NCBI GenBank assembly: GCA_964016885.1 | Contig: OZ024762.1 | Span: 23,374,001 to 23,438,000 of the forward strand | Direction: 5' to 3' | DNA length: 64,000 nucleotides | Origin: Eledone cirrhosa | Taxonomy: Eukaryota | Part shown: piece after piece, positions 12,251 through 63,533 of the stretch | Numbering within the stretch: position 1 is the first letter of the stretch | Layout of the letters: each line of letters starts with the position of its first letter | The notes under the pieces: model-generated | Told to the model about the DNA's origin: nothing | What the model saw: the letters and a program-made list of their open reading frames with translations, nothing else | The model's database searches: none | Program-made: the position numbers and the translations under genes

Positions 12251-12654
12251 ATAAATATTATTATTATTATATATATATATATATATATATATATATATAT
12301 TTAAAAACAAATAACGAAACGAAATTAAATTTCGTTTCGTTTGTAACTCACTTTTGTATGACTGACGCTTAAACAATTAAGTTAAAAATGTACATCTACA
12401 TATGCATACTGAAATACTAGTGTGTATATGAATACACACACGTATACATATGTAGGTGTACCAAGTCTTTCACTGGTCGCTTTACAGTGAGCGGCCCAGC
12501 TATTCTGTATGTAAACACACAGACAAACCGGTTTTTAGAGTCATACTGGTTTTTGGTCAGTCATACAAAAGTGAGTTACAAACGAAACGAAATTTAATTT
12601 CGTCTCGTTATTTGTTTTTATCGTCTCCGCTGAACCGGTGCGTACTCACACTCT

Positions 12655-12662
12655 ATGCAAAT
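12655..12662 (+). promoter_or_regulatory. Octamer motif ATGCAAAT (candidate internal promoter element)
   Basis: Conserved as tatgcaaattag at the equivalent position in three insertions (also 56667, 63225), 88-100 nt upstream of the HHR core; function inferred. Confidence 0.45.
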
Positions 12663-12747
12663 TAGTCTGCCCACTACTAATTTTCATAGAAAAAGCATAT
12701 AACGATATGTGCTTTTACAATTCTCCAGAAAGGCCGGTAGATAGGTA

Positions 12748-12792
12748 AATATTGCTGATGAGTTGTAACAACAACGAAACTAGTTCAATATT
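12748..12792 (+). ncRNA. Type I hammerhead ribozyme motif, canonical core
   Basis: aatattg-CTGATGA-gttgt/aaca/acaac-GAAA-ctag-TT-caatatt; perfect 7-bp stem I and 5-bp stem II; stem I extends via ttctccagaaag/ctttctggagaa (12721-12814). Confidence 0.92.
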
Positions 12793-13310
12793 CCTTGTCT
12801 GGCTTTCTGGAGAATAGGGGGAAGGTGTTCCCCCAAAAACCAGTATGACTCTAAAAACCGGTTTGTCTGTGTGTTTACATACAGAATAGCTGGGCCGCTC
12901 ACTGTAAAGCGACCAGTGAAAGACTTGGTACACCTACATATGTATACGTGTGTGTATTCATATACACACTAGTATTTCAGTATGCATATGTAGATGTAGA
13001 TTTTTAACTTTTTAACTTATATATATTTATATATATGTATATTAAAATCTCGTCTAGGTTATATTTCCATGGTTTCCAAAACACTCCACTTGTTAGTCAA
13101 ATCTTGAAACTTATATTTAAAGAATGAAACTTATATTTAAGTATCAGCCGTACTAAGAGTAAGAAATGAAATTTCATTTTTTCCATATATATATATATTC
13201 ATACTTACCGATATCTTCTGTATATATATTCATATATATATACACAGAAGATAAATATATATATATATATATAAATATGTATTATATTCATATATATATA
13301 TATATATTAT

Positions 13311-13496
13311 TGGTGGATTGGCAGTATCGGTAGAGGGTCGGACGCCGTGCTTTACAGCACAGTTACGTCCCTTTACGGACTGAGTTCAAATTCCGCCGAG
13401 GTTAACTTTGCTTTCATCCTTACGGGGTCGATAAAATAAAGTACCAGTAAAATACTGCGATAATTGCTGGCCTTGTACCAAAAGTAGAAACAATTA
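13311..13496 (+). mobile_element. tRNA-derived SINE, family 1 (~185 bp)
   Basis: A-box-like tggcagtatcgg, B-box-like gttcaaattcc, body ctttcatccttacggggtcgataaaataaagtaccagt, 3' end agtagaaacaatta; more than 15 copies in the window. Confidence 0.85.
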
Positions 13497-14569
13497 TTAT
13501 ATATCATCTTTATTCATATATATATATTATTATATTCATATATAATATATATATTTATATATTCATATATATATATATATTTATATATTCATATATATAT
13601 TATTATATTCATATATATATATATATATTTATATATATATATATATTATTATATTCATATATATATATTATTATATATATATATATTTATATAAATATTC
13701 ATATATATATATATATATAAATATTCATATATATATATATATATTTATATGAATATTTATATATTTATATAAATATATATATTTATATGTATATATATAT
13801 ATATATATATATAAATATTCATATATATATATATATATTTATATGAATATTTATATATTTATATAAATATATATATTTATATATATATATATATATATAT
13901 AAATATTCATATATATATATATATATATATATATATATTTATATGAATATTTATATATTTATGTAAATATATATATTTATATGTATATATATATACATAC
14001 ATACATACATACATACATACATACATACATACATACATACATGCATATACATACATGCACAATGGCACTGATCACGGAACCTGCCCCATTAGCTATACAT
14101 ATATGCATATGCCAGCGCGAATGAACTCGAGGGAAATAACGGGTATATTTCTATAGGAGTGAAATATTTCTAAATATGAATTAAATGGAAATGCAACCTG
14201 CAGTGAATCTTCCGTAGATTTTCTCATGACTAATTCAGTTAGAGGCCTTCCATACTTCTCCAAATAACGACTTTTCTAACACGTTTTGAAACATCTATTG
14301 TTCATATACATGCATTCATAAATATATATATATATATATATATATATATATATATATATATATATACACTCATGCGTGTGTTAGTATGATATGTATATGT
14401 GTGTGTGAGTATATGTATATATATATATATATGTGTGTGTGTGTGTGTGTGTATGTGTGAGTATATATATATATATATATATATGTGTGTGTGTATGTGT
14501 GTGAGTATATGTATATATATATATATATATATATGCATGTGTGTGTGTGTGTATATGATTATATATATG

Positions 14570-59811: not shown

Positions 59812-60011
59812 NNNNNNNNNNNNNNNNNNNNNNNNNNNNNNNNNNNNNNNNNNNNNNNNNNNNNNNNNNNNNNNNNNNNNNNNNNNNNNNNNNNNNNNNN
59901 NNNNNNNNNNNNNNNNNNNNNNNNNNNNNNNNNNNNNNNNNNNNNNNNNNNNNNNNNNNNNNNNNNNNNNNNNNNNNNNNNNNNNNNNNNNNNNNNNNNN
60001 NNNNNNNNNNN
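59812..60011. other. Assembly gap (200 N)
   Basis: Run of N between a (TA)n array and a C-rich minisatellite. Confidence 1.
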
Positions 60012-60500
60012 CCTCTTGCCTGCCCACCTACCCTCCCCTATCGTCTGCCCACCTACCTCCCCTATCGTCTGCCCACCTACCTCCCCTCTCGTCTGCCCAC
60101 CTACCCTCCCCTCTCGTCTGCCCACCTACCTTCCCTATCGTCTGCCCACCTACCCTCCCATCTCGCCTGCCCACCTACCTCCCCTCTCGTCTGCCCACCT
60201 ACCTTCCCTATCGTCTGCCCACCTACCCTCCCCTCTCGCCTGCCCACCTACCCTCCCCTATCGTCTGCCCACCTACCTCCCCTATCGTCTGCCCACCTAC
60301 CTTCCCTATCGTCTGCCCACCTACCCTCCCTCTCGCCTGCCCACCTACCCTCCCCTATCGTCTGCCCACCTACCTCCCCTATCGTCTGCCCACCTACCTT
60401 CCCTATCGTCTGCCCACCTCCCCTCCCCTCTCGCCTGCCCACCTCCCCTCCCTTATCGTCTGCCCACCTACCTGCCCTATCATCTGCACCCCCCTAACCT
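60012..60500. repeat. 24-25 bp C-rich minisatellite (cgtctgcccacctacc(c)tccccta t)
   Basis: About 19-20 visible copies. Confidence 0.92.
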
Positions 60501-62391
60501 ACCCCCCCCCCCATCTTCTATTTAGCTCTCATACAATTAACACTGAAAACAATCAAATTCGTTAGCCAAATACTCCAATAACAACAACAACAACCAGTGG
60601 TATTAACATACGATAAAACAATGGCATGAAAATCAATTAGACAATCATCTATATATGTATATATATATATGTATATATATATATATGTATATATATATAT
60701 GTATGTGTGTGTCTGTGTGTGTGTGTCTGTACGTGTATATAAACATGTAATTGTATTTATATCCATGTATATGCATATCTATCTGTGTATGTATGTATAT
60801 GTATATGTATATGTATATATATATATGTGAGTGTGTGTGTGTGTGTGTGTGTGTGTATGTGTACGTGTATATGAATATGTAATTGTATTTATATTCATGT
60901 ATATGCATATCTATCTATGTATGTGTATTTGTCCCCTTCTTTTGTGCCCCTGTGGCTAATAAAGAAATATATCTATGTATGTATATGTATATGTATATCT
61001 ATATATATGTGTGTATGTGTACGTGTATATGAATATGTAATTGTATTTATATTCATGTATATGCATATCTATCTATGTATGTATATATATATATATGTAT
61101 ATATATATATATATATGTATATGTATATATATGTGTGTGTGTGTATGTGTACGTGTATATGAATATGTAATTGTATTTATATTCATGTATATGCATATCT
61201 GTCTTTGTATGTATATATGTATATGTATATATATATATGTGTGTGTGTGTACGTGTATATGTATATGTAATTGTATTTAAATTCATGTATATGCATATCT
61301 ATCTATGTATGTGTATTTGTCCCCTTCTTTTGTGCCCCTGTGGCTAATAAAGAAATATATCTATGTATGTATATATATATGTATATGTATATGTGTATGT
61401 GTACGTGTATATGAATATGTAATTGTATTTATATTCATGTATATGCATATCTATCTATGTATGTATATATATATATGTATATATATATATATGTATATGT
61501 ATATATATGTGTGTGTGTGTATGTGTACGTGTATATGAATATGTAGTTGTATTTATATTCATGTATATGCATATCTATCTATATATATATATATGTATAT
61601 GTATATATATATATGTGTGTGTGTGTGTACGTGTATATGTATATGTAATTGTATTTATATTCATGTATATGCATATCTGTCTTTGTATGTATATATGTAT
61701 ATGTATATATATATGTATATGTATATATATATATATGTGTGTGTGTACGTGTATATGTATATGTAATTGTATTTAAATTCATGTATATGCATATCTATCT
61801 TTGTATGTATATATGTATGTATCTGTGGGTGGGTGTATGTGTATATGTGCATATGCATATGTTAATGTATATATGTTCATATATATGCATTATCTATGTA
61901 TGTATGTATCTGTGGGTGGGTGCATGTGTATACGTGTACATGAATATGTAAGTGTATATATATATTCATATATATGTATATCTATCTATGTATGTATGTG
62001 TGTGTCTGTGTGTGGATCGGTGTAAGTGTATATGTGTACATGTATATATGCATATGGATCTGTATATATATTCATATATATGCATATCTATGTATGTATG
62101 TATCTGTGAGTGGGTGCATGTGTATAAGTGTACATGCATATGTAAGTGTATATATATATTCATATGTATGCATACATAATATGTATATATATATACATAA
62201 TATGTATATATATATATACATAATATGTATATATATATATATCACAGAAAAAAAGACAATCAGTGTTGCGACGAATGGAATTTATTTGACATATTACAAT
62301 CGTTTCTCTGGCGACCAGCTCGAGGCACGATCGATTATATATATATATATATATATATATATATATATATATATATATATATATATATATA

Positions 62392-62596
62392 TAACGAAGG
62401 AAATGTGGTAAGGAACCAGGTGGATCATAACGCACCAAAGTACTCAATACTTAGGGTAGTAGAGTGGGTAATAGGAACGAGTAGGACCCCGACGGCTGAG
62501 CTCAAACCGTTTCAACGGCTAATTCTGGACTAAAAAGTTCAGAATTAGCCGTCGAAACGGCTTGAGCTCAGCCGTCGGGCTCCTACTCGTTCCTAT
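62392..62596. mobile_element. Short two-armed insertion of the 39346-41975 PLE family terminus
   Basis: - arm carries the full tail (ataacgaaggaaatgtggtaagg...); + arm ends at ctactcgttccta; (TA)n flanks. Confidence 0.8.
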
Positions 62597-62661
62597 ATAT
62601 ATGTATATATATATATATATATATATATGTATATATATATATATATATATATATATATATA

Positions 62662-63533
62662 TAAATGGAAAAAATGAAATTTTAATTCTCACACTTAGTA
62701 CGGCTGATACTTAAATATAAGTATGTATACGTACATACATATATGTATACAGACGTACACTAGTATGTATATACATGCATACATGCACACATATATATAT
62801 GTACGTATGGGTTTACCGAACATATATTATAATGCTCGGTTTGTTTGTAAACAAACAGCCCAAATTATTAGCCGTACAGTGTTCGGGAACCATCGTTCAA
62901 CCTTTTGTGCAACACTGACAAAGAAACGATGAACTAGTTTCTAGCTTATTAGCTGTCATCAGCACCGTATACCTTCCTGTCAGTCGAGTGAACGTTTGAA
63001 AGTATATACTTTCCTTATAATAAATGTTCGGTAAACCCATACGTACATATATACATATGTGTGTGCATGTATGTATATACATACTACTGTACGTCTGTAT
63101 ACATATATATATATGTACGTATACATACTTATATTTAAGTATCAGCCGTACTAAGAGTGAAAAATGAAATTTCGTTTTTTCCATTTATCGTTTTCGGTAC
63201 ACCAGGCCGACTAAATCACTCGATATGCAAATTAGGCTGCTCAGCCGTTAATAGGCGTAAGGAAAGTATATACTTTCAAACGTTCAATCAACTGAGAGGA
63301 AGGTATACGGTGATGATGACAGCTAATAAGCTAGAAACTAGTTCATCGTTCCTTTGTCAAGTGTTCATCAAAAGGCCAACGATGGTTGCCGAACACTGTT
63401 TACAAACAAACCGAATATTATAATATATGTTCAATAAACACATACGTACATATATATATATATGTGTGCATGTGTAAATATACATACTACTGTACGTCTG
63501 TATACATATATGTATGTACGTATACATACTTAT
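62662..63533. mobile_element. Retrozyme-like element (octamer + HHR family): - arm 62662-63020, + arm longer than one monomer
   Basis: Homologous to 55990-57036; catacgtacatat recurs 403 bp apart; octamer 63225-63232; HHR on - intact, HHR on + (63308-63348) has ATGATGA. Confidence 0.85.
62927..62967 (-). ncRNA. Type I hammerhead ribozyme motif
   Basis: cggtg-CTGATGA-c agct/aata/agct a-GAAA-ctag-TT-catcg. Confidence 0.85.

Follow-up and report, generated by a model that had tools for sequence, protein, structure and literature searches.

Non-LTR retrozymes are an already known class of element (Cervera and de la Pena 2020), described in mussels, corals and the axolotl as tandem repeats without coding capacity in which every unit contains a single type I hammerhead ribozyme (PMC7229834; PMC7761336). 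According to these accounts they have a GC content below 50%, are highly self-paired and occur in thousands of copies, circular RNA has been shown for the mussel, coral and axolotl elements, and rolling-circle reverse transcription of the circles by Penelope-like element (PLE) enzymes has been proposed since 2020 as a model (PMC7229834; PMC7761336). As the review presents them, retrozymes seem to be without promoters and without a motif pointing to a helper (PMC7761336). A recent study of vertebrate retrozymes in 35 genomes, whose main text names no mollusc, deals with the same class and proposes the same helper, arguing from co-occurrence and homology to PLE pseudo-LTRs (pLTRs) and favouring local tandem amplification (Li, Clavereau and Pollet, bioRxiv 10.64898/2026.07.22.740005). 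Hammerhead satellites with an internal promoter are described for the newt (satellite 2; snRNA type, Pol II) and for schistosomes (Sm-alpha; Pol III) (PMC2220036), and in the newt it is the dimeric form of the ribozyme that is active (PMC6155905).

The repeats of Eledone cirrhosa that we describe here are a variant of the metazoan non-LTR retrozymes. We analysed a window of 64,000 nt (GCA_964016885.1, contig OZ024762.1, positions 23,374,001-23,438,000, forward strand), in which a preliminary description had placed three insertions and a solo tail. All four are present where it placed them and, in line with its suggestion of at least two subfamilies, the three insertions fall into two related high-copy families, A and B. 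The first (E1, family A) consists of an inverted arm on the minus strand (12302-12556), which covers unit positions 467 to about 214 and adjoins (AT)n at its outer end, T1, and a direct arm on the plus strand (12556-13010), in which the tail (unit 404-467) is followed by unit positions 1-391 up to the outer end, T2. On the plus strand, a tail hairpin (12581-12611, z -2.6) lies just upstream of T1 and of the unit junction between 12619 and 12620, followed by an octamer-type 11-mer, ATGCAAATTAG (12655-12665), which provides the 5' arm of a hairpin predicted for the RNA, a TATA-like box (12695-12703) 40 nt from the octamer start, and a type I hammerhead (12748-12792) with the core CTGATGA at 12755, the motif GAAACTAGT at 12776, a palindromic stem III, a GUU triplet and a predicted cut between 12785 and 12786. 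The solo tail (13127-13188, plus strand) belongs to family B, ends at T1 and is 93.5% identical to the tail of the third insertion. The second insertion (E2, family B) joins an inverted arm ending at T1 (55990-56411, minus strand, hammerhead core at 56325) to a direct arm ending at T2 (56407-57036, plus strand), which exceeds one unit in length and carries the octamer (56667-56677), the TATA box (56708-56716) and a type I hammerhead (56748-56792) with its core at 56755, a GUA triplet and a predicted cut between 56785 and 56786. The third (E3, a family B variant) has an inverted arm with T1 as its outer end (62662-63017, minus strand) and a direct arm with T2 as its outer end (63015-63533, plus strand), the latter with tail, octamer (63225), TATA box (63266) and hammerhead. 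Its octamer and the intact core of the inverted arm (62962) are as first described, but the direct-arm core lacks its first C, which is mutated (63313), a defect that had gone unremarked. The arms of E3 are 82% identical to each other, and it is probably an older insertion. Rfam matches to miRNAs proved to be artefacts of (AT)n hairpins.

In the genome as a whole, short non-coding hammerhead repeats number tens of thousands: exact tail matches amount to 9,246 for family A (466-469 nt unit) and 24,202 for family B (430-502 nt unit). The octamer followed after 82-104 nt by CTGAYGA matches 8,250 times, against once for the reversed control, and a family B 28-mer matches 15,763 times, against none in its control; since these figures far exceed the controls, the combination of features is not due to chance. 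Copies are dispersed, tandem or head-to-head and lie mostly within (AT)n, and there are true tandem arrays with periods equal to the unit lengths of either family, which, together with the genomic signatures below, back the earlier proposal of a tandem or circular template. The median divergence within a locus is 0.76%, i.e. the source arrays are homogeneous. In the longest of the old arrays there are higher-order patterns of the kind typical for DNA-level expansion. The units have a GC content of 35-38%, and their longest ATG ORF measures 46-68 aa, except in B1, where a low-complexity ORF reaches 137 aa; no LTR layout was found at the loci surveyed and no RT plus GIY-YIG ORF in the units, which are thus not autonomous PLEs. 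The identification as retrozymes therefore stands, the units being short, non-coding and tandem with one type I hammerhead each, and they share the low GC content, the predicted self-pairing, the copy number and the proposed PLE mobilisation of the mussel, coral and axolotl elements, unlike which they are slightly longer (430-502 nt, against 150-450 nt; PMC7229834; PMC7761336).

The Rfam model HH9 scores 38.6 bits on E1, under the gathering score of 52 but with an E of 1.4e-8 for 281 nt, and matches E2 only weakly (18.5 bits, E 0.04); stem III of the A/B hammerhead is a 2-bp palindrome, which differs from that of the unrelated family D. In an alignment restricted to A and B (14 of 20 rows, those of family D being left out), the hammerhead stems covary: among the 14 distinct variants 91.8% of cells are paired, against 24-47% in slid controls, six pairs have changed on both sides, and none of 500 shuffles reached the same paired percentage or covariation score. 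Furthermore, all five natural monomers folded as circles are predicted to be 66-68% paired (z -9 to -14, 40 shuffles each). There is no pile-up of 5' ends at the predicted ribozyme cut (4/45 versus 2.0 expected). Contigs from four sequencing runs, whose kind is unrecorded, cover the unit and in three runs contain a 467-nt back-joint, which says nothing about circles because tandem DNA yields the same joint.

The ends of the insertions provide the link to PLEs. In 51/51 two-armed insertions (19/19, 9/9 and 23/23) a T1 end on one arm is combined with a T2 end on the other, T2 lying about 60-70 nt upstream of T1; this holds under a strict classification that requires an (AT)n flank and with A/B tail samples in which T2/T2 pairs are under-sampled by design. 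A loose classification gave 53 T1/T2 pairs and 7 same-type pairs, where the strict rule gave none of the latter; six of the 7 were dismissed as internal variants or as the tail palindrome, which matches either strand, and the remaining one (L317) is ambiguous. We recognise in this pairing the 'tail' signature that Penelope-like reverse transcription leaves with its two starts. It matches the anole PLE Poseidon, which uses two internal start sites and nicks both strands (Frangieh et al. 2024, PMC11167929). As in PLEs (PMC11167929; Craig et al. 2021), insertions are inverted and tandem with a one-ended tail, targets are AT-rich or microsatellite and a hammerhead lies in the terminal repeat; unlike PLEs, A and B have no RT or GIY-YIG ORF, and their tail measures about 60-70 rather than 30-40 nt. 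One non-microsatellite insertion (L382) is flanked by a 14-bp target-site duplication. A coding PLE of E. cirrhosa with RT and GIY-YIG (family C) likewise ends at TT/ATAT in (AT)n, and the hammerhead core is the only sequence it shares with A and B; in this one PLE family that was followed, we found no helper sharing sequence with either.

The second genomic signature consists of A-to-G changes on the ribozyme strand. Among 62 rare changes present in all covering units of a locus, 32 are A>G and 4 are T>C (p 2e-6), whereas the 461 changes private to single units comprise 34 A>G and 42 T>C (Fisher p 5e-6 against the all-units class). A bias confined to the all-units class fits one ADAR-edited monomer copied repeatedly, that is, a circular template. 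A 5' G adjoins the changed A in only 2/32 cases, against a background of 14-19%. The A>G count is clustered across loci. One hyper-edited locus (L233), complex in structure and without tandem units, contributes 11 of the 32, leaving 21 versus 4 without it, and counted by locus the comparison is 13 versus 4 (p 0.049). At L222+L343, 16/16 complete units are identical across both arms, each with three A>G in the octamer, and L383 carries eight A>G that recur in each of its three tandem units and also on the opposite arm as far as that is covered. That shared edits can also be passed on by a source array is shown by one octamer-broken haplotype, identical at 7 loci and comprising about 70 units without internal substitutions. 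The A-to-G changes found in every unit of an array suggest that the repeats likely spread through a PLE-type reverse transcriptase lapping a small edited RNA circle. Neither the two-start ends nor the all-units marks are known to be reported for retrozymes in the two accounts cited above (PMC7229834; PMC7761336), and together they support the mobilisation by PLEs that had been suggested for this locus.

We consider it probable that A and B are non-coding, high-copy non-LTR retrozymes copied from a circular RNA monomer into (AT)n by the RT and endonuclease of a PLE. A tandem array would be transcribed, either from the U6-like octamer and TATA box within its units or by host read-through; neighbouring hammerheads are predicted to pair via the palindromic stem III and release one unit, which a host ligase would close into a circle whose lone hammerhead would be poorly active. 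ADAR may then edit the highly self-paired RNA, as the A>G marks indicate, and a PLE enzyme would nick an AT-rich target on both of its strands and prime cDNA at T1 and T2, the two internal sites flanking the tail hairpin, possibly with several laps per cDNA. The product seen in the genome is head-to-head, with near-identical units on both arms.

One point against this mechanism is that the anole PLE uses uncleaved RNA in vitro and can dispense with the hammerhead (PMC11167929). Its preference for unprocessed RNA would favour a linear, multimeric read-through transcript as the template of PLE mobilisation, with circles incidental or absent, and a linear copy of homogeneous source arrays would look uniform too; yet editing should then strike units independently, in conflict with an A>G excess found in the all-units class and missing among unit-private changes, and the covarying hammerhead stems also speak against this template, which we regard as unlikely. 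Arrays might instead have grown by unequal exchange at the DNA level, satellite-like, from insertions of one to two units (Li, Clavereau and Pollet 2026), as the higher-order variants recurring in a 30-unit array at C1:5.74 Mb would suggest and as a haplotype switch at C744, through ectopic recombination or mis-assembly, might. As an account of the spread we find this improbable, given that one haplotype occurs at five loci of 7-25 units apiece, two of which have no fewer than 7 units on each arm, and shows no internal substitution in about 70 units, that the arms end at PLE start sites, and that edits on the promoter side of both arms are reachable only by copying past the ribozyme cut site; unequal exchange probably acts after insertion and not instead of it. 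That the units are 5'-truncated 3' ends, or pseudo-LTRs, of a coding PLE we consider very improbable, even though their ends are PLE-like, homology to pLTRs is known for the retrozymes of Xenopus (bioRxiv 2026.07.22.740005) and one family D copy adjoins a truncated PLE ORF (L160). The units are head-to-tail and lack a substantial ORF, and family C has only the hammerhead core in common with them. Unlike the vertebrate retrozymes, A and B yielded no homologous pLTR in E. cirrhosa. Nor does every copy serve as the 3' UTR of a coding PLE, since in a survey of 26 position-ordered A loci most 5' junctions adjoin the other arm or repeats.

The circular-template mechanism is compatible with either origin of its transcript, and whether octamer and TATA box act as a promoter we put at roughly even chances. 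Both are motifs of host U6/U6atac promoters (Pol III type), where the E1 11-mer recurs at -76 to -78; it marks four Pol III type-3 promoters that are independent of one another, and does not occur in the 300 nt upstream of U1/U2, so that the units differ from newt satellite 2, by analogy with which U1/U2 would be expected, and from the retrozymes of the review, which seem promoterless (PMC7761336). As in the newt and schistosome satellites, the promoter would be internal, although in A and B it is only putative. The opposing reading, that the motifs have been retained as hairpins of the RNA or are left over from a captured promoter, with host read-through as the sole source of transcripts, is nearly as plausible as not. 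Octamer and TATA box each lie inside a predicted hairpin; their spacing is 40 nt in A, 41 in B and 42 in D, about 5 nt short of the 45-47 nt of host U6/U6atac in A and B; by eye, the units contain no copy of the distal element of host U1/U2/U6 genes; and the octamer is broken at 7 loci. Pol III terminates at T-runs and would halt ahead of the next hammerhead, each A unit having four such runs (T4-T5). Absence of T-runs between predicted start and tail, considered as a sign of Pol III, holds in A and B but fails in a D copy and was therefore set aside. Against the read-through reading stand the octamer arm, which does not change between A, B, D and E whereas the strand paired with it does, the presence of the 11-mer at Pol III type-3 but not at U1/U2 promoters, and the host-like spacing of family E (46-48 nt). 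A captured U6-type promoter could also feed a replicon that resembles a viroid but passes through a genomic phase, in which germ-line circles persist or copy RNA-to-RNA. We hold this to be a long shot; if true, one ADAR-edited molecule would still seed many arrays with its promoter motif destroyed, and the octamer-broken haplotype at 7 loci would descend from RNA rather than from a source locus in the DNA.

We believe that the young and abundant copies of E. cirrhosa seem to record steps of a process so far proposed as a model, namely two fixed cDNA starts and RNA-editing marks, the latter serving as molecular barcodes of single templates. A direct test of the mechanism becomes feasible, for which the RNA and the start sites are defined and a family of candidate enzymes is at hand, and the comparison of all-units with unit-private A>G changes is transferable to the retrozymes of mussel, coral and axolotl. 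The promoter comparison gives an initial view of how snRNA promoters are laid out in E. cirrhosa, and a captured U6-type promoter in a self-cleaving unit, if true, would contradict the idea that animal retrozymes rely on read-through.

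The three insertions and the solo tail (13127-13188) of the preliminary description lie in the window as described, and each insertion (E1, 12302-13010; E2, 55990-57036; E3, 62662-63533) is laid out head-to-head: its minus and plus arms both run outward at their 3' ends into (AT)n. As had been claimed, they are non-coding and fall into at least two subfamilies, family A (defined by E1) and family B (defined by E2 and E3), with units of 35-38% GC and no meaningful ORF. The genome-wide search for copies and multimers suggested at the time returned thousands of matches, as well as tandem arrays, in the 3.0 Gb assembly, presumably of an octopus, in which the window spans C23:23,374,001-23,438,000. 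Family A gave 975 first-look candidates (97-100% identity among the 40 scored), arrays with a period of exactly 467 bp and 9,246 matches to an exact 26-mer of its tail, against 0 for the control. Family B, whose units of 430-502 nt vary mainly within the internal TA tract, gave 15,763 matches to a promoter-side 28-mer and 24,202 to a tail 25-mer (controls, 0). A pattern of octamer (the 11-mer motif of each unit), 82-104 nt and hammerhead core, which leaves out family B, matched 8,250 times against once for the control, and uncovered family D (~330 nt unit; L124, L157-L162) and older E-type copies (L151-L156), both with octamer, TATA box and hammerhead, the octamer-TATA spacing of the E-type copies being host-like. 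Two runs labelled as other organisms (X5 and X6; organisms B and C) also have contigs with family A sequence, at low depth.

Families A and B are real, abundant and recently active, and belong to the metazoan non-LTR retrozymes, a class defined by Cervera and de la Pena (2020, PMC7229834), the main text of which leaves octopus, cephalopods and octamers unmentioned. RNA circles were shown there in mussel. In the accessible parts of later and related work, Li et al. (2026) cover 35 genomes with molluscs absent, and 235 hammerhead loci appear, unanalysed, in a list of the giant squid genome paper (PMC6962438). In the searched literature, mostly open-access main texts, we found no published description of families A and B or of editing marks in retrozymes; prior cataloguing in Repbase or Dfam is possible.

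Insertion arms end at two sites: T1, a TT|AT step that follows the tail hairpin, and T2, ~60-70 nt upstream. A strict rule (end motif, then AT flank) was applied to 116 loci, of which 26 from family A and 73 from family B had been taken by position and 17 more from family A by score. All two-armed insertions (19, 9 and 23, respectively) were T1/T2, with no T1/T1 or T2/T2 pair; tail-based sampling under-samples T2/T2, but T1/T1 would have shown. Other loci were single-ended (41 T1, 9 T2) or unclassified (18). Of the seven same-type pairs that a looser pass yielded, six were artefacts of matching and the seventh was ambiguous. A 14-bp duplication accompanies one insertion that lies outside a microsatellite (L382). 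A protein of one Penelope-like element (PLE) was shown to nick AT-rich DNA on both strands and to begin reverse transcription at two internal sites, which set the genomic tail (Frangieh et al. 2024, PMC11167929); the PLE tail stands as a rule at one end only, according to the available text of Craig et al. (2021). The T1/T2 ends of every two-armed insertion under the strict rule support the earlier proposal of PLE machinery as the carrier, and we regard PLE mobilisation of families A and B as very probable.

A coding PLE, family C, has its 3' end at 4258-4380 and 57444-58310, with a minimal hammerhead (at 4295 and 57629), a long AT-rich 3' region and tails in inverted arrangements in (AT)n. 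There are 1,741 first-look candidates genome-wide, and RT-like and GIY-YIG frames precede the 3' end, which finishes in TT|ATAT, in four of seven extended loci; the Pfam GIY-YIG match (E 2.5e-4) is just below the cut-off and the RT frame has no Pfam match. Since family C shares no sequence with A and B outside the hammerhead core, it is a candidate helper only. A broken GIY-YIG PLE remnant on the minus strand at 4450-5030 is presumably Neptune-like, judging by its CNC..CPL..C linker motif.

ADARs have neighbour preferences, and RNA editing is heavy in cephalopods. We compared units at 54 A and 104 B loci, in the choice of which the edited pattern played no part (157 aligned, 108 with multiple coverage), masking the B TA tract and classing rare changes (at most two loci) against column majorities. 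Among 62 changes common to all covering units, 32 were A>G and 4 T>C, against 34 and 42 among 461 private to some units, and 38 and 14 among 174 single-coverage changes. A strand-biased excess of this kind, with a 5' G beside just 2 of the 32 sites, is the expected trace of an ADAR-edited template. That it is confined to the all-units class suggests a single monomer that was copied again and again. Both arms carry 27 of the 32 sites, and 15 are present in tandem units. A hyper-edited family B copy in a complex inverted arrangement (L233; G000:C1, 4.53 Mb) supplies 11; without it the counts are 21 and 4, and by locus 13 and 4 (p 0.049). At L222 and L343 all 16 complete units are identical, with three A>G within the octamer, and at L383 the three tandem units carry eight A>G. 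A pattern that required one A>G in the octamer, run across the genome, picked out 75 units at nine loci, every locus with at least one further A>G and none with T>C at the four T positions free to vary. Seven of these loci share one haplotype (~70 units, zero internal substitutions), which means that one locus may also pass shared edits on to another, and that a variant with a broken octamer is able to spread. At L380 (G000:C744) one arm changes mid-unit, in register, from this haplotype to another subfamily, by template switch, recombination or mis-assembly. At L383 and L375 substitutions are common to units while an A-run near unit position 300 differs in length from one unit to the next, through slippage each lap or assembly error.

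The 5' ends show no pile-up at the predicted ribozyme cut site (4 of 45, 2.0 expected), as expected of a circle or multimer template; a 2020 review (PMC7761336) proposes, in its accessible text, multi-unit cDNA made from circles. In an Rfam comparison, as proposed earlier, E1 reached 38.6 bits with HH9, under the gathering score, and E2 a weaker 18.5 bits. Folded as a type I hammerhead, 14 distinct A/B variants are 91.8% paired, against 24-47% in slid controls, with six pairs altered on both sides; none of 500 shuffles equalled the paired percentage or covariation score, while 171 equalled the count of both-side changes, and as the rows are kin, these figures back the fold without amounting to a probability. 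In A and B, stem III comprises 2 bp around a palindrome; family D has a different one. Hammerheads with a palindromic stem III are reported to cut as dimers within tandem transcripts and to stay uncut in monomeric circles (PMC4209133, accessible portion). Five natural monomers folded as circles gave z of -9 to -14, with the same hairpin series in all. We consider a circular template likely and, marginally less firmly, the overall mechanism of a PLE-copied circular monomer. The window also holds an inverted-pair repeat with a CTGAAGA..GAAA core (9654-9826, 17025, 23711-23809); at 43251 a hammerhead-like core stands by itself.

Retrozymes are said to seem devoid of promoters or helper-naming motifs (PMC7761336, in the text available), and newt and schistosome hammerhead satellites have internal promoters (cited in the accessible text of PMC2220036). 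The retrozyme 11-mer is the motif of host U6 and U6atac promoters: ATG(C/G)(A/T)AAT(T/G)AG stands at -76 to -78, with a TATA box at -31, in three independent U6 promoter types (among L061-L080) and the best U6atac gene (L167). Probable pseudogenes are without it, and it is missing within 300 nt in the 17 distinct U1/U2 upstream regions listed (39 loci, L081-L119), which have another proximal motif (TCAGT near -56, with a TATA-like box near -30). Common to U1, U2, U6 and U6atac genes is a distal element, about 250 to 270 nt upstream. In the U6 array on C19, six of 16 copies examined (L067, L068, L070-L073) carry a 192-nt SINE-like insertion between TATA box and +1.

Whether octamer and TATA box could act as the retrozyme's own promoter seems to us an evenly balanced question. 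The octamer arm is constant between families while its pairing partner varies, which favours such a function; yet the spacer between octamer and TATA-like box, 40-42 nt in families A, B and D, is shorter than the 45-47 nt of the host genes, both elements lie within predicted RNA hairpins, T4-T5 runs would be expected to halt Pol III ahead of the next ribozyme, and the octamer-broken haplotype has spread. If the promoter does work, we speculate that Pol II, via the altered spacing, would be better suited to producing full-unit transcripts.
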